This document shows positions 36,671 to 51,421 of a DNA stretch of 64,000 nt, piece by piece; positions within the stretch are counted from its first letter, which is position 1, and each line of letters begins with the position of its first letter. Source of the DNA: a virus (Duplodnaviria; Caudoviricetes); IMG/VR virus record IMGVR_UViG_3300042997_001039, positions 1 to 64,000 of that record; one strand, given 5' to 3'. Made by a program: the position numbers and the translations under genes. A model generated the notes under the pieces. That model was not told the DNA's origin. It saw nothing but the letters and a program-made list of their open reading frames with translations, and did no database searches.

Positions 36671-36913
36671 ATGAACGAACGAATTAAAGAGATTACTGTA
36701 CAGGCATTAGAAAACAGTCTTTTTGAACCTATTGAACCCACCGTAACAGTAGGCGAGGGTGAAAATAAAGTAACCATCCCACTTGTGTTTGCTGAAAAGT
36801 TCGCCGAGTTGATTGTTCGGGAATGTGCTGATGTGTGCCAACAATTCGGTAATGGCGGCTCTGGGTATACTCTCAGTTCTGAGATTAGAGAACATTTCGG
36901 AGTTGAAGAATGA
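36671..36913 (+). CDS. Small phage protein of the MNERIKE...EKFAELIVREC...EHFGVE family
   Basis: Recognisable recurrent phage family signature. Start revised to 36671. Confidence 0.75.
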   Translation: MNERIKEITVQALENSLFEPIEPTVTVGEGENKVTIPLVFAEKFAELIVRECADVCQQFGNGGSGYTLSSEIREHFGVEE

Positions 36914-37424
36914 GATCACATTATACATGCGGAAAATGTAAAACATCATTGGAAGCAACTCAAGAACATTTCTTTCCTAGCAATCTTAAAAAAGTTGCCA
37001 ATGATCTAACTCGACTTGTTATTTCTCAATGTAAACCTTGTGCCAATCAATATGCTACACAGTGGCGTAGTGATATCAAAGCAAAAGGCTTGACCCGAAG
37101 TCGAAAAAATACATTAGTAATGGCAGGTGCTGTTATTGGTACTGTTTATGTTATTGGTCCAGATATTCCCGGAACTCCTTATAAGATTGGAATAACATCT
37201 GGCTCAAAAATAGACAGAAGAAAAGCAGCATTACAAACATCACATTGGATGGAACTTAAAGAAGTCTGGAAATCAGATTTGTTAGATAGAGCAGATATTG
37301 TTGAAAAGAAACTTCATAAGCATTTTGAAAAGAAATGGGTGCGTGGAGAATGGTTTAATATTACCAAAGACGATATTTCTGATATTCCAGTATTAATAGA
37401 ACATTTCGGAGTCAAAGAATGAGA
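36889..37424 (+). repeat. 27-bp direct repeat (25/27 identical) at 36889-36915 and 37398-37424 flanking the endonuclease gene
   Basis: AGAACATTTCGGAGT(TG/CA)AAGAATGAGA. Confidence 0.9.
36910..37422 (+). CDS. Zn-ribbon plus GIY-YIG/T5orf172-type endonuclease
   Basis: CGKC...CKPC, then VYVIG...YKIGIT, R...LQT, E..LH..F....VRGEWF. Confidence 0.85.
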   Translation: MRSHYTCGKCKTSLEATQEHFFPSNLKKVANDLTRLVISQCKPCANQYATQWRSDIKAKGLTRSRKNTLVMAGAVIGTVYVIGPDIPGTPYKIGITSGSKIDRRKAALQTSHWMELKEVWKSDLLDRADIVEKKLHKHFEKKWVRGEWFNITKDDISDIPVLIEHFGVKE

Positions 37425-39313: not shown

Positions 39314-39872
39314 AATAGTTTGCTACATGGGCGGTACTTGCGGCGATCTAATTACTGCATTAATTGACAGACAACACGTCAAATTTAATAGAATTACCCG
39401 AGCAGTAATTCACCATTCCGATCGCACTAAACTCAAGAAACCTAATTTGTTTGCAAACGATTTAGAAAAAGATCAATATGTACAAGACATGGGTTTAATA
39501 TACCGCAGTGTACCCAGTCATGACATCGAATACCATATTCATAGACAACATTGCTTTATTGGAATTACAGTAAGCAATTTTGATGTAGCAATGTGGGCTG
39601 CTAAACGATTTAAAAAAGTACATAGACCGCATGTATGGGATGAAATGCAACGAGCCTGCGGTGCTGAGTCAGTCAATGACTATGCCCAGATGATGATAGA
39701 TTATTCTGGACTAATTAAAAAATCAACCGATAGATTAATAACACTGGAGTCTATTCGGCAAGGCCAAGCAGTAGATGATCTCGAAAAGTTATCAGGTCAT
39801 TCGGTTGACTCTGGTACACGAAACTTGTATAATAACTGGTTGACTTTGCAAAACGGATTATGGATGATCTAA
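39306..39872 (+). CDS. Hypothetical protein, possibly P-loop/sulfotransferase-like
   Basis: An N-terminal beta strand plus YMGGTCGD loop, VPSH and ITLESI. Confidence 0.5.
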   Translation: MIEIVCYMGGTCGDLITALIDRQHVKFNRITRAVIHHSDRTKLKKPNLFANDLEKDQYVQDMGLIYRSVPSHDIEYHIHRQHCFIGITVSNFDVAMWAAKRFKKVHRPHVWDEMQRACGAESVNDYAQMMIDYSGLIKKSTDRLITLESIRQGQAVDDLEKLSGHSVDSGTRNLYNNWLTLQNGLWMI

Positions 39873-41359
39873 TGAAACAAGCTATAATTATTGTACATGA
39901 TGAAGTTAATTGTAAAATAGAAGGGCTTGATCTTGACTGTCGTCGAGCACTTGTTAAAAAATTTAAATACATGAATCCAGCTGCACGATACTTGCCTGCA
40001 GTTAGACTAGGACGATGGGACGGCTGCGTACAATTCTTTCAATTAGGTGGCAGCACCTATGTAAATTTATTGCCAGAGATTATTCCTGTATTGGAATCAT
40101 TTGACTATGATATTGAGTTAGACGATCGTAGAACCTACAGTACAAAATTTGAATTTGTTTTAACGGCAGAAGATACATTCAGCAATCGTGCGTGGCCGCC
40201 TGGACACGAACGTGCGGGTCAGCCTGTAGTATTACGAGATTATCAAGTAGAGATCATCAATGACTTTCTAAGCAATACACAAAGTCTACAAGAAATAGCC
40301 ACTGGCGCAGGCAAAACACTTATAACAGCAGCATTAAGCTGGCAAGCCGGCAACTATGGGCGTAGTATTGTTATTGTACCTAATAAAAGTTTAGTTACAC
40401 AAACCGAAACTGATTACCGTAACTTGGGTCTAGATGTTGGTGTTTATTTTGGTGACAGAAAAGAATGGGGACGTCGGCATACTATCTGTACTTGGCAATC
40501 TCTCAACAACCTTTTAAAGAATACCAAGTCAGGCGAAGCTGAAATTACTATACAAGAGTTTCTTGAAGATGTGGTATGTGTTATTGTAGACGAAGTGCAT
40601 ATGGCCAAAGCAGACGCACTCAAAACATTGCTAACTGGCGTAATGGCACATATACCAATTCGATGGGGACTTACTGGTACTATCCCCAAAGAAGATTTTG
40701 AATTCAAGGCATTAGAAGTGAGCCTTGGGCCAGTTGTTGGTCGATTACGTGCTAGTGAACTACAGGCCCAAGGTGTATTGGCACAGTGCCATGTAAATAT
40801 TGTGCAGTTGGTTGACCATGTAGAATATAAGGACTACCAGAGCGAGCTTAAATACTTGGTAACCACACCAGAACGTATGGAAGCTGTTGCTAAAGTAATA
40901 GATAAAATTAAGGAAAGCGGTAATACACTTATATTAGTAGACCGCATTGAAACAGGCAAGATACTACAAACACAGATGAGTAGCTTGTTTAGCCTACTTA
41001 GCGATAAACCAGAAGTGGTATTTGTTTCAGGTTCGACAAAGGTAGCTGATCGCAAGGAAGAATATGATGAAATTGCTACGTCAACTAACAAAATTATTAT
41101 TGCCACATACGGTGTCGCTGCTGTCGGTATTAATATTCCTCGCATATTCAATTTGGTTATGGTGGAATCTGGCAAGAGCTTTACAAGGGTAATACAAAGT
41201 ATCGGCCGAGGTATCCGCAAGGCCGAAGACAAGGACCATGTAGAAATTTGGGACATTACTAGTACTTGTAAATTCAGCAAAAGACATTTGACTAAACGCA
41301 AGGCTTTTTATCGAGAAGCCAACTATCCGTTTAGTCAAGAAAAATTAGATTGGAGTTAA
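39872..41359 (+). CDS. uvsW: SF2 DNA helicase UvsW
   Basis: LRDYQ, ATGAGKT, VDEVH, GLTGT, GINIP and QSIGRGIR. Confidence 0.93.
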   Translation: MKQAIIIVHDEVNCKIEGLDLDCRRALVKKFKYMNPAARYLPAVRLGRWDGCVQFFQLGGSTYVNLLPEIIPVLESFDYDIELDDRRTYSTKFEFVLTAEDTFSNRAWPPGHERAGQPVVLRDYQVEIINDFLSNTQSLQEIATGAGKTLITAALSWQAGNYGRSIVIVPNKSLVTQTETDYRNLGLDVGVYFGDRKEWGRRHTICTWQSLNNLLKNTKSGEAEITIQEFLEDVVCVIVDEVHMAKADALKTLLTGVMAHIPIRWGLTGTIPKEDFEFKALEVSLGPVVGRLRASELQAQGVLAQCHVNIVQLVDHVEYKDYQSELKYLVTTPERMEAVAKVIDKIKESGNTLILVDRIETGKILQTQMSSLFSLLSDKPEVVFVSGSTKVADRKEEYDEIATSTNKIIIATYGVAAVGINIPRIFNLVMVESGKSFTRVIQSIGRGIRKAEDKDHVEIWDITSTCKFSKRHLTKRKAFYREANYPFSQEKLDWS

Positions 41360-41360
41360 T

Positions 41361-41969
41361 ATGGGCACAACTTTTAAACTTGCTGAAAAATATTTAAAAG
41401 TGGATACAAACACAGTGTTTGTAGAAATTGGTAGCGATCGTTACGAAGGATCTACTGAGTACTTTGCTGAATTAGCACAAGATAACAATACAATACTTCA
41501 CACTGTTGATCTTAGCAACGAAGCAAGAAATAGATTAGATCAAACCATTAACATGCACAATATCGTTTGGCATCAAGCTACAGGGTCTGATTGGGCCAAA
41601 AATGTATTTCCCACATTTGAGAAAAAGATTTCGTTATTGTACCTAGACAATTTTGATTACAACTGGAACATCTCGCGACCCAACGACAATATTGAATTGC
41701 AAAAAACACAATATCGAGAAGAGTTTGGCATCGAAATGACTAATCAAAATTGTCAGCTCGAACACTTTAAGCAGATGTTGTCTTTGTATCCTTATATGGC
41801 TGATTATAGTGTTATTATTTGTGACGATACTTATACTTTAAATGATTGTTGGATAGGCAAGTGTGGTCCTATAGTAGTTTATCTATTGGCCAACGGATAT
41901 CAAATTGTAGAAAAACACGCTGGCGGAGACGCCGGATATAGTTACGGAGTTATATTAGTAAGAGGCTAA
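41361..41969 (+). CDS. Class I SAM methyltransferase-like protein
   Basis: FVEIGS, HTVD, LLYLDNFD and IICDD. Confidence 0.7.
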   Translation: MGTTFKLAEKYLKVDTNTVFVEIGSDRYEGSTEYFAELAQDNNTILHTVDLSNEARNRLDQTINMHNIVWHQATGSDWAKNVFPTFEKKISLLYLDNFDYNWNISRPNDNIELQKTQYREEFGIEMTNQNCQLEHFKQMLSLYPYMADYSVIICDDTYTLNDCWIGKCGPIVVYLLANGYQIVEKHAGGDAGYSYGVILVRG

Positions 41970-41970
41970 A

Positions 41971-42651
41971 TTGGAAACAGTTATTATAACTTACCAAGCA
42001 GATCTGGAACGTGCATTACGTGCAGCAAAATCTATTAGTCTATACGGGGTAGGCAATTGTGTAGACCCTATACATATTGTAATCAATGACAGTCCTGTTA
42101 TATTCGAACAAGCACAATCTTTATTTGTAGATATCAAAAGAACACAAGTTTATCACTATACAGATATTAGTACATGGATACATGCTAGTAGCGGATGGTG
42201 GAGCCAGCAATGGCTTAAATTGCAGGCACACAAATTAGTATCAACTGATTGGTATATGCCGTTTGATAGCGATATGTATCTGTCCAGGTCTATTAAAAAC
42301 ACAGAGTTATTTTCAGGACGCAAAGCTATTTGCAATCTACACAATCGAAGTGTATATAAAGATAATAAACTATTTATTGAGTATATTGACAATGCTTGTG
42401 CCTACTGGCATGTTGATCCAGACGAAATATTTCAAATACTCAGAGAAACTCCACCTAATATAATGCATCGAGTCTCTGTAGATAACATGCTTAACGAAAT
42501 GACCCCCTGGGTGCTTGGTAGCACTCAGACACCCAGTCTGGAATTCTTTATCTATTGGGTATATTTGTATAAAAATAATCTTACTGATATGTACCAACAT
42601 CGAGATAATTGGTTTTGGTTCGGCGATGCATTTTATATGGATAATGATTGA
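41971..42651 (+). CDS. GT-A-like glycosyltransferase (DUF6492-like)
   Basis: GW..QQWLKL, YMPFDSD (DxD) and EF..Y. TTG start. Confidence 0.7.
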   Translation: METVIITYQADLERALRAAKSISLYGVGNCVDPIHIVINDSPVIFEQAQSLFVDIKRTQVYHYTDISTWIHASSGWWSQQWLKLQAHKLVSTDWYMPFDSDMYLSRSIKNTELFSGRKAICNLHNRSVYKDNKLFIEYIDNACAYWHVDPDEIFQILRETPPNIMHRVSVDNMLNEMTPWVLGSTQTPSLEFFIYWVYLYKNNLTDMYQHRDNWFWFGDAFYMDND

Positions 42652-42677
42652 CTTTTATAGATCACTTATTGTATAAT
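42648..42677 (+). promoter_or_regulatory. Sigma70 promoter TTGACT-18-TATAAT (extended TG)
   Basis: Direct motif; ATG 7 nt after the -10. Confidence 0.7.
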
Positions 42678-42683
42678 TAACAT

Positions 42684-43184
42684 ATGAGAATACTAACCTT
42701 AGATAACTTGGCCTACGATTTAAACACACTTCCAGAAGAAGTAGACGACATGCGTTTTGCCATACTTGACAATAGCGATCCGTCTAATCCAGACTATCAC
42801 TACATACCTTTAATCTTCCTGGAGAGCTTCAATTCACCAGCATTAGTTTTACAAATTGGCGACTATACAGTTAAGATGCCAATGGACTGGAAAATTTTGA
42901 TCGGAGAACCAGATTCAGGAGACCTGGAAGTGATACCCTTAACCAGTATCAATGATAGGGGCTTTAAGGCATTTCAGTTCAATCCGCTAAGTAGTTTTAG
43001 TCCGACTTTTCCCGAAATTGAAATTATAGATGTATATCATGATGTTACGTGGTATAGTCCTAAATTAAAGAATGGACAGATGTTGGCTATACCGTTAGAT
43101 GAAAGCCATAAACCAGATTGTGTGTATTTTGTCAAAGATATCAGCCGCAACTGTGAAATTGTTGATTACTCAAAGGCCTGGTAA
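42684..43184 (+). CDS. Conserved all-beta hypothetical protein (possible Hint-like fold)
   Basis: 166 aa, beta-rich pattern; see findings. Confidence 0.65.
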   Translation: MRILTLDNLAYDLNTLPEEVDDMRFAILDNSDPSNPDYHYIPLIFLESFNSPALVLQIGDYTVKMPMDWKILIGEPDSGDLEVIPLTSINDRGFKAFQFNPLSSFSPTFPEIEIIDVYHDVTWYSPKLKNGQMLAIPLDESHKPDCVYFVKDISRNCEIVDYSKAW

Positions 43185-43383: not shown

Positions 43384-43697
43384 TGGCACAGCCAACTGAC
43401 AAGTCAGTACGTGGACGTAGAATACAACAAAAGCATAGACATATTGCCAGACAAATGGCTATCCGTAAAGCTCACGCTTTTAATTTTGGTGGGCCTGGCG
43501 TAGTTGTTGGTGATTCAAATAACCCACACCGTTACCATAAAGTAAGCGGCATGACATGCGGTAATTCAAATTGTTTCGCATGTGGTAATCCGCGCAAATT
43601 CTTTGATGAACGCACTGTACAAGAGCAACGAGAGATGCAAGATGTAGAGCAAACCCGTAACAAACACAGTAATGGAACACTGCCACAAGATGAGTGA
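43383..43697 (+). CDS. Small basic protein with a C-x4-C-x2-C metal site
   Basis: HRYHK.S...CGNSNCFACGNPRK.. Confidence 0.7.
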   Translation: MAQPTDKSVRGRRIQQKHRHIARQMAIRKAHAFNFGGPGVVVGDSNNPHRYHKVSGMTCGNSNCFACGNPRKFFDERTVQEQREMQDVEQTRNKHSNGTLPQDE

Positions 43698-44139
43698 TAA
43701 ACTAAACATTGCCAACGAGATGAAACAGTTTGATCTCAAGAACCGCGACTTCTACGATGAGCTAACAGCAGAAGAACGTAAAAAGTTCAGCAACTATCTG
43801 ATGATACGTTGGGGCAGTAGTGTACAAGGTTCTAGGGAATTGCAAGAGTACTATGTGCAAAGCTGCAATCACTACTTTAACAAAAACTTCTTTGCCATCA
43901 GTAAACATCCTAAGCTGCAATGGCTGTGTGCTACAGCAGTGAGCCCAGGCATGGGAGTGCATAGGCATCAATGGATTAGTCCCAAGAAGAAAGAAGCCAG
44001 CTCTGGTACTATGCGAAAACAATTAGCAGAACTGTTTCCAAATATGAAAGACGACGAACTTGATCTACTGGCAAAGATCACTACCAAGAAAGAACTAGAC
44101 CAATACATTCGAGATCACGGCAACGAAGTTAAAAAATGA
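43690..44139 (+). CDS. Clamp-loader small subunit-like protein (gp62-like)
   Basis: KKFSNYLMIRW, HPKLQW, RHQWI..KK and a helical C-terminus resembling T4-like gp62. Confidence 0.5.
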   Translation: MSDKLNIANEMKQFDLKNRDFYDELTAEERKKFSNYLMIRWGSSVQGSRELQEYYVQSCNHYFNKNFFAISKHPKLQWLCATAVSPGMGVHRHQWISPKKKEASSGTMRKQLAELFPNMKDDELDLLAKITTKKELDQYIRDHGNEVKK

Positions 44140-44819
44140 AATTTGAATGCCAATACTGTAAGAAATCTTTTGCTAAAGAAACTACGCTCATGGTGCATGT
44201 CTGTGAGCAAAAGAAACGTTTTCAAAGTCAAAATGAAACTGGTATCCAGATTGGACTCAAATCTTATTTGCAATTTTATGAATCAAGCCAGGGTATAGGC
44301 AAAAAGAAAACCTTTGATGATTTTGCAACAAGTCCTTACTATAGAGCGTTTGCTCGTTTTGGTCAATATTGTGTCAGCATACGTGCTATCAATATTCCTC
44401 GCTTTGTTGAATGGTTACTGAAAAATAACAAAAAGATTGATTTTTGGTGTAAGGATACCGTGTACGAAGAATTTCTTGCACAGTATCTTCGAGTAGAGTC
44501 AGTGACTGATGCTTTAGAACGTGCCATAAGAGAAATGCAAGACTATGCAGAAGCCAATCCAGATTTAAAAAATGGTATCAGCGACTATTTTAGATATGGC
44601 AATACCAATCGATTGTTTTATCATATATCAACTGGACGTGTTAGTTCTTGGATTGTTTACAATTGTAAATCTGGAATTGAATTCCTTAATGGACTCCAAC
44701 CAGATCAAATTTCTATGATATGGAACATGATAGATTCTGATTTTTGGCAAAAGAAATTCAGTGATCATGCTGTTGATGTAGAATATGTCAAAGATATTTT
44801 GAAAAAGGCAGGCCTGTAA
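44136..44819 (+). CDS. C2H2-type Zn-finger protein with a helical domain
   Basis: CQYCKKSF..E.TL..H.CE. Directly upstream of mini-dnaE. Confidence 0.7.
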   Translation: MKFECQYCKKSFAKETTLMVHVCEQKKRFQSQNETGIQIGLKSYLQFYESSQGIGKKKTFDDFATSPYYRAFARFGQYCVSIRAINIPRFVEWLLKNNKKIDFWCKDTVYEEFLAQYLRVESVTDALERAIREMQDYAEANPDLKNGISDYFRYGNTNRLFYHISTGRVSSWIVYNCKSGIEFLNGLQPDQISMIWNMIDSDFWQKKFSDHAVDVEYVKDILKKAGL

Positions 44820-45370
44820 TGTCGGCAGATATTGATATTGATGTACCTGATAGAACAAAATTATTGAGACTAATACATCATGTACCAGCACGACAACAAA
44901 ATAGATCACACAATTCAGGTATATATGTCACCCAAATACCGTTTGACCCTGTTACAGGAACAGCGTCGATAGATTACGAAGAAGCTGAACAGCGAGGATA
45001 CTTCAAAATTGATTTATTGAATATGAGTGTATATCAATTGATAAAAGATCCAGAGCACTACAAACTTATGTTGGAGAGAACTCCTAACTGGACTCGGTTA
45101 TGGACTGACACTGAATGGTCTAAAAAAATAGTTCACGTGGGAAATTATACAGATTTATTAAGCAGCATGAAGCCAGATTCCATTGTGCGTATGGCAGCGT
45201 TTATCAGTATCATCCGACCCGGTAAAGCACATCTGCAAAGAAAGCCATGGGTTGATGTATTTGCTAATGTCTGGGATGGAGACAACTCTCGCGGATACAC
45301 ATTTAAAAAATCTCATAGCCTGGGCTATGCTCAATTAGTTGCATTACATATGAACTTGTTAGATGAATAA
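44819..45370 (+). CDS. dnaE: Miniature family-C DNA polymerase (DnaE palm plus partial fingers)
   Basis: Colinear DnaE motifs: DIDID, HNSG, GYFKIDLL, KPDS...IRPG and GYTFKKSH..Y. Confidence 0.85.
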   Translation: MSADIDIDVPDRTKLLRLIHHVPARQQNRSHNSGIYVTQIPFDPVTGTASIDYEEAEQRGYFKIDLLNMSVYQLIKDPEHYKLMLERTPNWTRLWTDTEWSKKIVHVGNYTDLLSSMKPDSIVRMAAFISIIRPGKAHLQRKPWVDVFANVWDGDNSRGYTFKKSHSLGYAQLVALHMNLLDE

Positions 45371-46067
45371 ACTACAACACATCTATGCCAATGGCTGTTC
45401 GTTTACACACGACAACTATATTATAAACGATCTGGAACAAGACTGTTATCCAGAGCTGTTAGCCAAAAGTTTAGGACTTGCATGCACCAATGCTGGGGTT
45501 CCGGGTAGCTGCAATAGAAGAATAATCAGAAATACCTTACGAGATTCTTTAACTTTTGATAACTCTACTATGGTAATAGTACAGTTGACTTTTTTATCTC
45601 GTACAGAAAAACCATTTACACCTGGTCAAGGCAACGAATGGAAATTGCAAGGCACAACTGAGGAATATCACGAAAGTATTAAAGCAAATCCATCTGAATT
45701 TTTAAACCAGGAATACTATCAAAACTACCTGCGTTTTTTTGACGAACGTGCAGAGCTCACAAACTTAGCTGCAGATCTAATTATGCTTTCGAGTTACTTA
45801 AATAGCAAAAACATTCCTTACTTTATTTTTCCTTACGTACAACTCTCTACTGATCCAGCAGTTTGCATTCAACATGATCTGCTGCAAAAAACACTATCTC
45901 AGGACGAGTATGTGCTTGACATATTAAAAGACAGTTTAATTGACAGATTAGGGCCCGGAGATTGGTATTATGATTCTTATCCTGGGCATCTAAACGTACA
46001 AGGACATAGACGTGCTGCAGAACTACTGCAAACATTGATGCCTATTGTATACGTCGGACCAAAGTAA
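45363..46067 (+). CDS. SGNH/GDSL-like protein
   Basis: ANGCSFT, NAGVPGSCN.RI and GHLN..GH...A. Confidence 0.82.
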   Translation: MNKLQHIYANGCSFTHDNYIINDLEQDCYPELLAKSLGLACTNAGVPGSCNRRIIRNTLRDSLTFDNSTMVIVQLTFLSRTEKPFTPGQGNEWKLQGTTEEYHESIKANPSEFLNQEYYQNYLRFFDERAELTNLAADLIMLSSYLNSKNIPYFIFPYVQLSTDPAVCIQHDLLQKTLSQDEYVLDILKDSLIDRLGPGDWYYDSYPGHLNVQGHRRAAELLQTLMPIVYVGPK

Positions 46068-46419
46068 TTGATCTTCTCTTGGCCTTCCTGCGTGTTAAAT
46101 CATTGAGACTACATACAGGTCCACACAAAATATTTAGATCTTTGTTGACAAATGTTCTACGATATGAAGTAAAAGGTTTCCATTCAGTTTTCAGAAAGAT
46201 ATTGATAGGCACTGATCTATTGCTTTCCCACCACCAAACGTTAGCTAGTTCTAGAAAAAGGTGTTTTAACTCGCTGTCTTGAATATTCCCAAAATCATAT
46301 ATAGTAGTGATATTTTCGTCTTGATTTTGCACAATTCCTACATATTCCACACCGGCGTAGACGCAAAGCGACATAAAAGGGTACTTTTCAGTTAGTTGTT
46401 GTATTATGTTTATGCCCAT
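46042..46419 (-). CDS. Conserved hypothetical protein
   Basis: 125 aa. YPF.S...Y...EY.GI.QN and WWWESNR..PI.IFL. TAAATA on the - strand at 46459-46464. Confidence 0.7.
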   Translation of the reverse strand: MGINIIQQLTEKYPFMSLCVYAGVEYVGIVQNQDENITTIYDFGNIQDSELKHLFLELANVWWWESNRSVPINIFLKTEWKPFTSYRRTFVNKDLNILCGPVCSLNDLTRRKAKRRSITLVRRIQ

Positions 46420-46440: not shown

Positions 46441-47226
46441 ATGTACGCGACCACTGCCTATTTATATCAACAAATTCAATCAGTTTTATTGATAGACACC
46501 AGTGGCGCTTATTTTGACGCGAGGTGGGATCCAGTGTACGCAAAAAACTTAACTTTAAATCTAGGAGTTGACAACGTCATACTCTTTCAGTTTCAGAACC
46601 AAGATCAGAAACCAACTAGCATAGTGGGTGCTACATTTACGTTCCGAATCATTAGTCAAAATGGCCAAGACCTGTTGTTTGCCAAAGAACTGGTGGCCTT
46701 AAATGCTGCGTCTGGTCGTGCCAAAGTGACCATTACCGCTGAAGAAACTCAGCACTTCCAAGAACAACCAGCCAGTTACAGTATTGAAATATCATCCGGC
46801 GTTTTAGACCAAGCGGTATTTACAGACGACCAAGCAGGTGCACGTGGCACAATCAATATTGTAAATTCAGTATTTCCAGCATTTACTGCCAGTCAAGTAC
46901 TAACTGTACCTAGTCAAGCACCTGTGGGTAATGTGTACTATACCAGTACTGTGACCACAGATGGAGCACCGTTAACTACTTTTCAGTTGGACACAGCCAA
47001 CATCACCGGCAACATCACAGTGCAAGGTGCAACTGCTGCTACAGCAAACACAGTAGAATGGTACAATGTTCCATTTGAGGACTTGAAGACTGGCAACGTG
47101 ATCAACCAACTGAATCTGACCAGTAGCACAGAAAGATTGGGTATCAATGTAGAAGGATTCCATCCTTACATAAGATTAGAATTGAACTTTAGCACTGGCG
47201 AACTAGCAGAAATACTTTATAGATGA
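46441..47226 (+). CDS. Virion structural protein (BppU N-terminal/Ig-like)
   Basis: Beta-rich, GVDN.I.F.F.NQDQKP. Late promoter at 46419-46424. Start at 46441. Confidence 0.65.
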   Translation: MYATTAYLYQQIQSVLLIDTSGAYFDARWDPVYAKNLTLNLGVDNVILFQFQNQDQKPTSIVGATFTFRIISQNGQDLLFAKELVALNAASGRAKVTITAEETQHFQEQPASYSIEISSGVLDQAVFTDDQAGARGTINIVNSVFPAFTASQVLTVPSQAPVGNVYYTSTVTTDGAPLTTFQLDTANITGNITVQGATAATANTVEWYNVPFEDLKTGNVINQLNLTSSTERLGINVEGFHPYIRLELNFSTGELAEILYR

Positions 47227-47942
47227 AATTCAAAAAGATAGTGGGGTTTGGCGACTCGTGGATTTGGGGAGACGAACTGTTAGATCCTTTACTACATAAT
47301 ATAACTAATTCTCACCCTATAATGCAGGAAAACACTCCCTACAGGGAGAGTCATTGTTTTCTGGGTCTATTGGGGCATCATTACGGTGTTCCGGTGGAGA
47401 ATTTTGGCATTCCGGGCGGCAGTCAACAAAGTGCTATGTGGACTTACTTGTGGTGGCTTGAACACGAACAACTAGACCTATCTGAATGTTTGTTATTAGT
47501 AGGACATACTGAATCCAACCGAGATACGTTTTACAATCCCGCCCATGTAAGCTACGCAAATGATCCTCCTTGGAACAAGTTTATACACAGTGCCTGGGTA
47601 CATAGTGGTGCTTCTTGTATTGATTCTGAATGGTCTAACATGGTCAAAACAAATATGATGTTAACAGATTGTAATGAATTAAGGAATCTTACCTATCGAC
47701 AATCTGTTTTATTTTTTGAAGGCCAAAATTATAAATTAGGTAATAATATAATCCAATTTACCACTATGGGCCCATCAATTGTTATTAATGCTAAAGGACT
47801 ATTATGGCCAGATTCTGGGCTTTCGACATTCATTAAAGGCTGCCCGGAGTTAATGGCACCGGGTCGTCATCCAAATGAGCAAGGTCATTTAGTTATCCGC
47901 GACCACTTGATTCCTGAGATAGATCGTGTTATACTAGCGTGA
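47223..47942 (+). CDS. SGNH/GDSL-like protein
   Basis: GFGDSWIWG, NFGIPGGS and GRHPNEQGH. Confidence 0.85.
   Translation: MKFKKIVGFGDSWIWGDELLDPLLHNITNSHPIMQENTPYRESHCFLGLLGHHYGVPVENFGIPGGSQQSAMWTYLWWLEHEQLDLSECLLLVGHTESNRDTFYNPAHVSYANDPPWNKFIHSAWVHSGASCIDSEWSNMVKTNMMLTDCNELRNLTYRQSVLFFEGQNYKLGNNIIQFTTMGPSIVINAKGLLWPDSGLSTFIKGCPELMAPGRHPNEQGHLVIRDHLIPEIDRVILA
47907..47935 (+). promoter_or_regulatory. Sigma70 promoter TTGATT-17-TATACT upstream of the primase gene
   Basis: Direct motif; ATG at 47942 is 7 nt after the -10. Confidence 0.6.
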
Positions 47943-48904
47943 TGCTAGATATTGTACAATACCTTCCAGGAAAACGCAAACAATCGAGTTCGGGCTGGAT
48001 CAGCTTTAACGGACCTTGTTGCATTCATAACGGCGAAAGTCAGGATCGACGTCAACGTGGAGGCCTTCTAAGTAGTTCTGAAGGATGGAGCTACCACTGT
48101 TTCAATTGTAATTTTACAGCCAGCTTTATTTTGGGACGCAATCTCAGCTTCAAAGCACGTAAGTTGTTGGGGTGGTTAAATGTACCAAAAGAAGAAATAG
48201 AACGTATCAATTTAGAAAGCTTGAAACATCGCAGCATTGCAGGTCTATTAGATGATAGGCAACGTACCGCTGCTGCCATACAAGATATACGATTTGAAGA
48301 ACATGACATAGGCGGCGTCGAATTTGTAACACCGGAACATACTGATATTTGGAATTACTTGCGACGTAGACATGCACCCATAGATTATCCTTTTATGGTT
48401 AGTGCAACCCTAAATTCAAGACCCGGAGTAATTATTCCATTTACCTATGACAATATAGTAGTAGGACGAACAACTAGATTCTTAGATGATCGTAAACCGG
48501 TATGGTTAAATGACTTTCAACCTGGATATGTATTTGGTACTGATTTACAGCATGCTAATTGGCAACATGTAATTGTAACCGAAGGTATATTTGACGCATT
48601 GTCGATTAGCGGGCTTGCACTCATGCACAATACAGTAAGTGATGCACAAGCAAGATTGATACGTACCTTGGGTCGAGAAATAACTGTAGTGCCAGATCAA
48701 GATCAACCTGGTATGGAGTTGGTAGAACGTGCCTTGGAGCTGGGTTGGGCAGTCAGCATGCCTGAGTGGGAAGGCTGTAAGGATGTAAACGATGCTGTAA
48801 TCAAATATGGTCGCTTGGCAACTTTGCTAACTATAATGCAATCAAGGGAAACCAGCCGAATCAAAATAGAAATGCGGAGAAAACAAGTTGTTAAAAGAAT
48901 ATAA
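47942..48904 (+). CDS. DNA primase (Zn-binding plus TOPRIM)
   Basis: CC.H...D...RGG, YHCFNC, VTEGIFDA, VPDQD..G and KDVND. Confidence 0.92.
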   Translation: MLDIVQYLPGKRKQSSSGWISFNGPCCIHNGESQDRRQRGGLLSSSEGWSYHCFNCNFTASFILGRNLSFKARKLLGWLNVPKEEIERINLESLKHRSIAGLLDDRQRTAAAIQDIRFEEHDIGGVEFVTPEHTDIWNYLRRRHAPIDYPFMVSATLNSRPGVIIPFTYDNIVVGRTTRFLDDRKPVWLNDFQPGYVFGTDLQHANWQHVIVTEGIFDALSISGLALMHNTVSDAQARLIRTLGREITVVPDQDQPGMELVERALELGWAVSMPEWEGCKDVNDAVIKYGRLATLLTIMQSRETSRIKIEMRRKQVVKRI

Positions 48905-50273
48905 TGTAGATGTTCAGCGTTTGTTTTTGGAAATGATGTTGTGTGACGCACAGAGTTATGTGCGTGTGCAGAACATTTATAATCCTGAAAACTTTGATCG
49001 CAATCTTAGAGCAGCCGCTGAGTTTATCAAGGAACATTGTGAACAACATCATACCATGCCAGATCGAGCACAGATATCTGCAACCACAGGCATAGCATTA
49101 CAAGACATTCCAGACTTAAACGACGGACACTTTGATTGGTTTTTGGAGGAATTCGAAGCGTTTACTCGTAGACAAGAACTAGAACGTGCAATTTTGAAGT
49201 CTGCAGACCTGTTGGAGAAAGGCGAGTTTGATCCAGTTGAAAAACTAATCAAGGACGCAGTACAGATATCCTTAACCAAGGATATGGGCACTGATTACTT
49301 TGGCAGCCCGGGAGAACGTATTAACCGATACTTTAATTCTGGTGGACAAGTGTCAACAGGTTGGCCGCAAATGGATCGATTGTTGTACGGTGGATTCAGC
49401 AGAGGTGAACTCAACATCTTTGCTGGTGGTTCTGGATCAGGTAAGAGCTTGGTCATGATGAATATTGCACTCAACTGGTTACAACAAGGACTCAGCGGTG
49501 TTTATATATCGTTAGAATTGAGCGAAGAACTGTGTGCTCTTCGTACAGATGCCATGTTGACCAGCATGAGTACCAAGGACATTCGCAAAGACATATCGAC
49601 TACTGAACTCAAAGTCAAGATGATGGGCAAGAAAGCGGGCGAATATCGTATCAAGGCATTTCCAGCACAAAGCACAGTAAACGACATTAGAAGTTACATT
49701 AAAGAAGTACAGATACAGACTGGTATTAAGATTGACTTTGTTATGGTTGACTACTTGGATTTGTTGATGCCGGTCAGTGCCAAGGTCAGTCCCAACGACT
49801 TGTTTGTCAAAGACAAGTATGTGTCGGAAGAACTGCGTAACTTGGCCAAAGAATTGGGCGTGTTGTTTGTGACAGCAAGCCAGTTGAATAGATCAGCAGT
49901 GGAAGAAATTGAATTTGACCACAGTCATATATCGGGTGGTATTAGTAAGATCAACACAGCCGACAACGTGTTTGGTATCTTTACTAGTCGAGCAATGCGT
50001 GAACGTGGCCGTTATCAAATACAATGTATGAAGTCACGTAGCTCAACAGGCGTAGGACAGAAGATTGAACTGGAATACAACATTGAAACCATGCGTATTA
50101 CAGATCCCGGTGAGGATATGACCAGTCAAGGTCCCAAGCCCAGTATTATGGATTCTATTAAATCTCGTAGTGATGTTACTCAATCTGACAGCCAAGAAGA
50201 CATACCCCGGGTCACAGCTGACATACAGAGCAGCAAGCTAAAACAATTGCTCGGACAAATAAAAACAACTTAA
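48888..50273 (+). CDS. Replicative DnaB-like helicase (gp41-like)
   Basis: GGSGSGKS, ISLELSE, VDYLDL, TASQLNR, GGISK and KSR. TTG start with SD GGAG. Confidence 0.93.
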   Translation: MLKEYNVDVQRLFLEMMLCDAQSYVRVQNIYNPENFDRNLRAAAEFIKEHCEQHHTMPDRAQISATTGIALQDIPDLNDGHFDWFLEEFEAFTRRQELERAILKSADLLEKGEFDPVEKLIKDAVQISLTKDMGTDYFGSPGERINRYFNSGGQVSTGWPQMDRLLYGGFSRGELNIFAGGSGSGKSLVMMNIALNWLQQGLSGVYISLELSEELCALRTDAMLTSMSTKDIRKDISTTELKVKMMGKKAGEYRIKAFPAQSTVNDIRSYIKEVQIQTGIKIDFVMVDYLDLLMPVSAKVSPNDLFVKDKYVSEELRNLAKELGVLFVTASQLNRSAVEEIEFDHSHISGGISKINTADNVFGIFTSRAMRERGRYQIQCMKSRSSTGVGQKIELEYNIETMRITDPGEDMTSQGPKPSIMDSIKSRSDVTQSDSQEDIPRVTADIQSSKLKQLLGQIKTT

Positions 50274-50278
50274 CATGT

Positions 50279-51421
50279 ATGAAAGATAAAAAATATTTTT
50301 GTTACGAAATTTACAAAAATCTTGCCATAGCGTCTGATCCATCCGGAAAGGTGGGATACAGTCCTTGCTCTTACTATCGAGGTTTTATTAAAGTTTCAGA
50401 CGATATTGATATTTCTAAAATTTGGAACAGCCAGGAACATGTAGCGTTAAAACAATCAGTAGAAAATGATCAGCCAATACCTGGTTGTGCCAGCTGTTAT
50501 CAAGAAGAAGCTGCTGGCTTAAAAAGCAGAAGGATGGGCTCAAAAGAATTTTATGAGATTTTTCAAAACAATACCGATATCGACATTTCAGGTCCTCAGG
50601 GATTGGATTATAGGGTGGGTAATTTGTGTAATCTTAAATGTGTTATATGTGGCCCTAGTAATAGCACGTCGTGGATTCCGGACTACTCACGCATATACCC
50701 AGACCGATCAGTAGAGATTTTTAAGCATCGAAAAAACGAACAGATTTTTTTATCCGATCCCAAAGTAGTTGAAAATATTAATATTGTGCATTTACACGGT
50801 GGTGGTGAACCGCTAATGAGCAATGCCCATATAAAGTTACTAGAACTAATACGCGATACAAAAGGATTATCGGATGTACGTATCTTATACAATACCAATG
50901 GCACGATCAGGGCTAGTGATCAGGTACTTGAATTATGGAGTCAATGCCGGTTAATAGAATTGTATTTTAGTATAGACGATGTTGGATCAAGATTTGAATA
51001 CCAACGCACTGGTGCTAAATGGACAGAGATAGAAGATAATATTTCTTGGTACAAACAGAAAATGCCGCACAATCATATGTTTAACATCAATTGCACATGG
51101 GGATATTTGAATTTTTATTATCTGCCGGACTTAGTAGATTGGTATAATAAAAACTTTTCTACTAATAGATATGGGGATCCAGTTAACCTTATCTTTCAAA
51201 AGGCCCTGGGGCAATTTTGTTTATCTTACATATCATCAACTATGTTACAAATGTTTAAAAAAAGATTTGCCAATTATCCGACCCTACTGCCTTTGCTATA
51301 TTCATTGAGTATAGATAACAGTAAGGATCATTCTGAATTTTGGAATTCCATACAAAATATCGATAAGATAAGAAAACAAGATTTTAAAAATCTTCACTCT
51401 GAATGGAGTCAATTACTATGA
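50279..51421 (+). CDS. Radical SAM protein with an N-terminal Cys-rich (Twitch-like) domain
   Basis: CNLKCVIC (CxxxCxxC), GGGEP, YNTNGT, SID and N-terminal PC...C.SC. Confidence 0.92.
   Translation: MKDKKYFCYEIYKNLAIASDPSGKVGYSPCSYYRGFIKVSDDIDISKIWNSQEHVALKQSVENDQPIPGCASCYQEEAAGLKSRRMGSKEFYEIFQNNTDIDISGPQGLDYRVGNLCNLKCVICGPSNSTSWIPDYSRIYPDRSVEIFKHRKNEQIFLSDPKVVENINIVHLHGGGEPLMSNAHIKLLELIRDTKGLSDVRILYNTNGTIRASDQVLELWSQCRLIELYFSIDDVGSRFEYQRTGAKWTEIEDNISWYKQKMPHNHMFNINCTWGYLNFYYLPDLVDWYNKNFSTNRYGDPVNLIFQKALGQFCLSYISSTMLQMFKKRFANYPTLLPLLYSLSIDNSKDHSEFWNSIQNIDKIRKQDFKNLHSEWSQLL

Follow-up and report, generated by a model that had tools for sequence, protein, structure and literature searches.

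We analysed a 64,000-nucleotide stretch of viral DNA (positions 1 to 64,000 of IMG/VR record IMGVR_UViG_3300042997_001039; the window), which is part of an 81,435-base viral contig with a CheckV completeness of ~24% of the genome. An open reading frame (ORF) on the plus strand of the window, at positions 44819–45370, encodes a 183-residue protein (the C-unit) that is very probably the C-terminal (metal-/template-binding) unit of the two-gene minimal DNA polymerase III α-subunit (Pol III α) of group 2.2 jumbo phages. The identification is supported by homology, fold, catalytic residues, the colinear split between the two halves, their co-occurrence, a natural fusion, and purifying selection.

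Pol III α is the bacterial replicase. In group 2.2 jumbo phages, a phage-specific minimal Pol III α occurs alongside a family-B polymerase. The minimal enzyme is split between two standalone proteins whose genes lie far apart, one an N-terminal nucleoside triphosphate (NTP)-binding subdomain and the other a C-terminal Mg2+/template-binding subdomain (Iyer et al., 2021, Viruses 13:63; PMC7824862). The split arrangement is therefore already published, and the window gene is one more well-characterised example of it. New here are a single-chain fusion of the two halves (P0178), the linkage of the N-terminal half (the N-unit) to a clamp-loader gene, and a conserved zinc-knuckle neighbour of the C-unit.

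Likeness of the C-unit to Pol III α

The C-unit matches the family phrog_11778 ('DNA polymerase') with an E-value of 1.3e-50, residues 3–182 aligning with profile positions 7–192 of 197. It also gives a colinear match to the DnaE family phrog_405 at profile positions 579–691 and 779–808. A profile built from 77 diverse homologs (full-length representatives from among 332 clusters, ~185–215 residues long and 26–64% identical) was compared with the sequences in the PDB; the top nine matches are all Pol III α (E 4e-6 to 8e-5), with the G-x-x-K-x-D block falling on Escherichia coli (E. coli) residues 538–641 and the FKKSH block on residues 739–770. Aligned by hhalign with a genuine 1093-residue DnaE, the C-unit gives a probability of 91% and an E-value of 9e-7. 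Motifs colinear with DnaE had been claimed in a first-pass annotation of the locus, and the phrog_405 match, the homolog profile, hhalign and the structure alignment described below all agree with that claim. A phmmer search of the PDB with the single C-unit sequence found nothing, so a profile is needed to see the similarity. The protein has no match in Pfam or NCBIfam, and a search of the 81-kb contig for PF07733 found nothing. Because it falls short of the curated cut-offs and lacks most DnaE domains, the C-unit is best classed as a member of the phrog_11778 family and not as DnaE proper.

The AlphaFold2 model of the C-unit has a predicted local distance difference test score (pLDDT) of 95.6, and the top 17 PDB matches of the model in Foldseek are all C-family polymerases. 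VIA-align places 172–181 of the 183 residues on E. coli α residues 399–777, Taq residues 460–834 or PolC residues 970–1292 with Z scores of 6.3–9.9, the next unrelated match having a Z score of 3.3. The C-unit shares with DnaE and PolC (PDB 2HNH, 2HPI, 3E0D, 5LEW and 3F2B) the Asp triad, the Lys beside the third Asp, the RPG and (N/K)KSH motifs, and the fold of the second part of the palm and of the finger base. In the 183-residue protein these motifs are DxDxD (D4, D6, D8), K63-x-D65, R133-P134 and K163-x-x-H166. The resemblance to DnaE is statistically and structurally sound.

The C-unit differs from DnaE and PolC in what it lacks and in having a palm that is divided between two polypeptides. 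The model alignment starts at E. coli α residue 399, two residues before D401. About 53 residues of the C-unit replace E. coli 399–537, so the thumb is missing, and about 10 residues replace E. coli 642–738, so the finger segment with the YQEQ and RRAMGKK motifs is gone. In all, ~200 residues are deleted inside the E. coli 399–777 span and nothing lies before or after it; the PHP, clamp-binding and OB parts are absent. The first-pass annotation had listed the same missing parts, and the model and profile alignments agree with its list. The GS nucleotide-binding motif is likewise not on the C-unit chain, which starts after the motif (GRGSS on the N-unit of relatives).

The reading frame is intact, as had also been proposed, and it is coupled to its neighbours in the window. 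Its ATG shares bases with the stop codon of the preceding ORF (TAATG), and the following ORF begins 8 nucleotides ahead of the C-unit stop codon.

The family of the C-unit has 5,689 members of 100–321 residues, which form 332 clusters at 50% identity. Residues D4, D6, K63, D65 and P134 are invariant in all 77 diverse representatives, and D8, H31, G34, R133, K163 and H166 are nearly so. The window protein comes from an uncultured, highly abundant clade in which the copies are 71–78% identical to one another. In 80 close relatives the length varies only from 182 to 187 residues, and the key residues (D4, D6, D8, K63, D65, H31, G34, R133, K163, H166 and P134 among them) are kept in every one. The median ratio of nonsynonymous to synonymous substitution rates (dN/dS) among these close relatives is 0.074 (461 pairs with 0.05<dS<1.5). 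The variable truncation and Asp loss that the first-pass annotation had envisaged for a pseudogene are not what these homologs display. The C-unit is a live gene, neither pseudogene nor decayed fragment, because the three Asp residues are invariant and purifying selection is strong. The protein covers about one sixth of DnaE and scores below the Pfam and NCBIfam cut-offs, as a decaying remnant of a captured dnaE or a non-catalytic scaffold might; set against its constant length, invariant triad and low dN/dS, such an origin is scarcely credible.

The partner half and a natural fusion

The N-unit was traced through the annotation of phage Sharanji (WNN14566.1, 172 residues), which matches phrog_11127 with an E-value of 3e-87. 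It carries a precomputed Pfam assignment to PF07733, matches the DnaE profile at positions 360–429, and belongs to a family of 6720 members in the protein collection searched. N-units all end in ...WG(V/L)GRGSS...(L)D..EFL(R/K/N). In the hhalign alignment the C-terminus of the N-unit falls at DnaE residue 349, ~8 residues short of PDFDIDF, the motif that opens the C-unit. The cut in the gene therefore falls inside the Pol-β-like palm, with the GS motif on one side of it and the DxD strand on the other. Joining of the halves by a split intein was considered and rejected, since neither the ...EFLR end of the N-unit nor the MSADIDID start of the C-unit carries an intein-sized extension.

The nearest cultured relatives of the C-unit belong to jumbo phages (PA5oct-like, Atu_ph07/Phosso and 121Q/PBECO4/Rak2-like). 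The known C-units of this family (121Q gp16 and those of PA5oct-like phages and Atu_ph07; phrog_11778) have the same length, motifs, fold and genomic position as the window protein; in those phages, as in relatives of the window phage, a separate, distant N-unit and a family-B polymerase also occur. The window copy stands apart in being 36–41% identical to the cultured-phage copies, in its uncultured clade, and in having its own N-unit off the contig. Among cultured-phage records the C-unit is found in 96 and the N-unit in 93, each as one copy per record and with almost identical host distributions.

The N-unit is single-copy in PAC2, Phosso and Sharanji and in four large IMG/VR relatives (G001, G002, G003 and G004) whose C-unit is ~72% identical to that of the window. 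Two of these are essentially whole genomes (G001, 345 kb, 99% complete; G002, 364 kb with terminal repeats, 100% complete). The two halves lie 30–224 kb apart in relatives and ~97 kb apart in G001 and G002; with that spacing, there is no room for both on an 81-kb fragment that has the C-unit close to its centre. In all five genomes compared (G001, G002, PAC2, Phosso and Sharanji) the N-unit and the gene for the large clamp-loader subunit share a strand, the N-unit being 0.7–2.6 kb upstream. In four lineages the C-unit is flanked by the UvsW helicase gene on one side and the primase/DnaB genes on the other. Each half thus has its own replication module around it. A GroES-like gene stands between the N-unit and the clamp-loader gene in Sharanji and G002.

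Earlier papers noted what is probably the N-unit as an oddly short Pol III α. The 'truncated' 172-residue Pol III α of Rak2-like phages (CBB_328, Buttimer et al., 2017, PMC5259590; Atu_ph07 gp316, PMC6102473) looks like the N-unit by size and annotation, that is, the other half (GRGS motif, phrog_11127) and not the ORF described here.

The two halves also occur as one chain. P0178 is a 375-residue protein from an ENA metagenome, recovered in a search of representatives of the C-unit family. Its residues 8–180 correspond to a full-length N-unit (phrog_11127, E 5e-33) and its residues 190–374 to an equally complete C-unit (phrog_11778, E 4e-47), which is ~40% identical to the window protein; a 9-residue linker joins the two in DnaE order. 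The single chain matches TIGR00594 (Pol III α) straight across the junction with an E-value of 8e-15. The fusion sits at the C-unit locus: a minus-strand phrog_11637 gene follows it on its 2.4-kb contig (L099), the same family as after the window C-unit and in cultured relatives. As a Rosetta-stone case from this one contig, P0178 speaks for joint action of the halves as a single enzyme. No further fusions were found among the longer relatives of the window protein or in an IMG/VR search with P0178, and a search of metagenome contigs for fusions returned only two ordinary full-length dnaE genes. Separately, metagenome contig OKRZ01000398.1 (L100:3366–7382) carries an otherwise ordinary dnaE that appears as a 382-residue PHP-domain ORF and a 933-residue polymerase ORF with 66 nucleotides between them. 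Either DnaE would be divided here in another way, or sequencing has introduced a break.

The first-pass annotation had suggested that the 183-residue protein might rank among the smallest Pol C-type enzymes. A self-sufficient miniature polymerase or nucleotidyltransferase would be in keeping with the presence of all three catalytic Asp residues on the C-unit and with its confident in silico fold as a lone chain. Against it, the GS-motif part of the palm is on the other chain, encoded by a strictly co-occurring gene, and is part of the same chain in P0178. Activity with no partner is highly improbable, and the label of smallest enzyme does not hold for a protein that is half of a ~355–375-residue catalytic core.

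The first-pass annotation had also remarked on the absence of the family-B polymerase gp43. The absence is real for the sequence at hand, since PF00136 has no match in the window or in the whole 81-kb contig (~24% of the genome). It probably does not extend to the phage itself: a family-B polymerase of ~890–907 residues is encoded by complete relatives with a 72%-identical C-unit, and one is present in G001, G002, G004 and Sharanji. Because relatives with the same gene carry this polymerase, its absence is most reasonably read as an artefact of the contig being a fragment. A DnaQ-type exonuclease gene, which adjoins UvsW in CBB and Sharanji, had no match on the 81-kb contig or in the ORFs upstream of UvsW.

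The proposed two-chain enzyme

In the proposed enzyme, the C-unit alone would supply the strands with the three catalytic Asp residues (D4, D6 and D65), the adjacent K63, and a pared-down finger base formed by the RPG and FKKSH helices. These finger helices were assigned to template binding by Iyer et al. (PMC7824862). The first part of the Pol-β-like palm, which holds the GRGS motif, is missing from the C-unit and would come from the ~172-residue phrog_11127 protein, whose gene in this phage should lie in the ~76% of the genome outside the contig. The N- and C-units would associate non-covalently and rebuild one nucleotidyltransferase active site, giving a ~355-residue core with no thumb, proofreading or clamp-binding domain. 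Such a core may perform Mg2+-dependent nucleotidyl transfer on DNA, probably as distributive short-patch synthesis, for repair, gap filling or primer extension, alongside the family-B replicase. The expectation of a distributive, auxiliary role comes from the loss of the thumb, of the proofreading and clamp-binding parts and of part of the fingers. An auxiliary synthesis role next to the family-B replicase is suggested by Iyer et al. as well (PMC7824862).

Several observations weigh against a two-chain templated polymerase in this phage. Neither the Sharanji N-unit nor phrog_11127 matched any of the 81,435 bases of the contig, and the presence of an N-unit in the phage is presumed from its relatives. 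The halves belong to separate gene modules, and the fused form is known from one example on a single short contig. The C-unit has neither a thumb nor a counterpart of the E. coli 642–738 finger segment (YQEQ...RRAMGKK). In the Taq ternary complex, that segment holds residues that contact the incoming deoxynucleoside triphosphate (dNTP). With the dNTP-contacting finger segment and the thumb both absent, templated, processive synthesis is not assured. No biochemical test of any family member was found in the literature searched.

The same deletions leave room for a template-independent or specialised Pol-β-fold nucleotidyltransferase, made of the same two pieces and acting in tailing, primer modification or small-nucleotide synthesis. 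We regard this as possible though rather unlikely. It would fit the loss of the thumb and of the 642–738 segment, the want of any proofreading or clamp-binding part, and the family-B replicase that complete relatives already have. The non-palm parts that were retained, however, are the RPG and FKKSH helices with their template-binding assignment, and both genes lie inside replication modules, one in the primase/helicase block and the other in the clamp-loader block. PADLOC, moreover, returned no matches, and so none to defence or signalling nucleotidyltransferase models.

If the proposed split polymerase is correct, the two-protein core of ~355 residues would be a candidate minimal C-family polymerase, with a bearing on the origin of the large multidomain Pol III α; Iyer et al. 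propose the minimal enzyme as a model of ancestral Pol III α (PMC7824862). The family is strongly conserved and very abundant in metagenomes, the protein collection searched containing >5,600 C-units along with >6,700 N-units. The P0178 fusion is a ready expression construct.

Neighbouring genes

Two conserved genes precede the C-unit on the same strand. The nearer (44136–44819, +) encodes a 227-residue zinc-knuckle protein (phrog_11058) with an N-terminal C-x2-C-x12-H-x-C motif, and directly upstream of it is the gene for a 155-residue helical protein (phrog_11758; 43672–44139, +). The four zinc-knuckle residues, C5, C8, H21 and C23, are invariant in 37 homologs. Residues 2–22 resemble classical zinc fingers (E 0.004), and the match of the ORF to PF00096 (C2H2 zinc finger) scores 17.8 bits against a cut-off of 25.2. 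An ESM Atlas model of the protein (predicted template-modelling score, pTM, 0.80) has only its own phage family among its sequence and structure neighbours.

The first-pass annotation had offered the C-unit as the catalytic subunit of a split polymerase completed by these two neighbours. The catalytic subunit of a split polymerase is what the C-unit appears to be; the partner is the distant phrog_11127 protein and not the neighbours. As missing pieces of DnaE the neighbours were rejected, hhalign giving both proteins a probability of 0.1–0.2% for similarity to any part of DnaE. Nor did the 'gp62-like' label, which had been given to the ORF as starting at 43690 (43672–44139 here), find support: 23 members of its family have no Pfam match at E<=0.1, gp62 (PF16790) included, and their profile has no PDB match. 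A faint gp62 lead in the ESM Atlas amounts to 11% of one neighbouring cluster at rank 19.

The neighbours might still be further subunits besides the N-unit, binding DNA in place of the lost thumb or clamp-binding regions. The gene order phrog_11758, phrog_11058, C-unit is kept at 25–33% identity in the lineages of the window, the PA5oct-like phages, Asteriusvirus and Phosso/Atu_ph07, and at 75 of 80 IMG/VR loci. The zinc-knuckle gene is present, always as one copy, in 93 phage records whose hosts span the same range as those of the polymerase halves, and in the window its stop codon overlaps the C-unit start. This co-occurrence is not specific, because a large syntenic core is common to all these phages. 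The coupling, too, is not conserved, inserts of 6 to ~2400 nucleotides separating the two genes in relatives; the neighbours resemble no DnaE segment, and no recognisable phrog_11058 gene stands ahead of P0178 on its short contig. An additional-subunit role is thus unlikely, and we hold it equally doubtful that phrog_11758, the zinc-knuckle protein and the C-unit form a functional cassette in which the zinc-knuckle protein assists the mini Pol III as a DNA-binding subunit. Were it so, this would be a multi-subunit C-family polymerase of very small parts, with the zinc-knuckle protein replacing the lost thumb or clamp-binding regions, and the conserved neighbour is a candidate partner worth testing.

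The spacing between the zinc-knuckle gene and the C-unit is stepped (6, ~360 or 700–2400 nucleotides) among close IMG/VR relatives (loci L011–L085), a hot spot of small ORFs that come and go. In 121Q-like phages the insert at this place is annotated as a virion structural protein.

The conserved replication block around the C-unit is bounded upstream by a UvsW-type superfamily 2 (SF2) helicase gene (39860–41359, +); on its downstream side are the genes for a DnaG-type (Toprim) primase (47939–48904, +) and a DnaB-type replicative helicase (48888–50273, +). Between the UvsW helicase gene and a conserved phrog_11279 gene, a methyltransferase-like ORF (weak match) and a DUF6492 ORF (E 1.7e-17) occupy 41361–42651 and were not seen at that place in PAC2. 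The best σ70-like match of the region (TTGACT, an 18-nucleotide spacer, TATAAT; 11 of 12 positions) is at 42648–42677, just upstream of the ORF at 42684 that heads the co-directional run ending with the C-unit; such sites are not more numerous than chance, and the promoter and terminator scan of the region as a whole did not rise above chance.

Downstream of the C-unit, the small minus-strand phrog_11637 gene (46042–46419; E 4e-33) has counterparts by strand and position in PAC2, Sharanji and Phosso, where annotated minus-strand genes directly follow the C-unit. Two ORFs of ~235 residues (45363–46067 and 47223–47942) with SGNH/GDSL-like N-termini (GCSF and GDSW) lie amid the replication genes and resemble each other weakly (E 0.002). 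The first of them, between the C-unit and the conserved minus-strand gene, has a weak match to DUF6071 (E 0.008) and no counterpart at that place in PAC2, Sharanji or Phosso.

No tRNA genes were found in the 64-kb window. Directly after the DnaB-type helicase gene, positions 50279–51421 encode a radical-SAM protein (PF04055, E 2.6e-8). Upstream of the replication block, positions 36910–37422 encode a protein with a T5orf172/MUG113 (Uri-type endonuclease) domain (E 4e-10), a family that Iyer et al. (2021; PMC7824862) connect with recombination in these phages.

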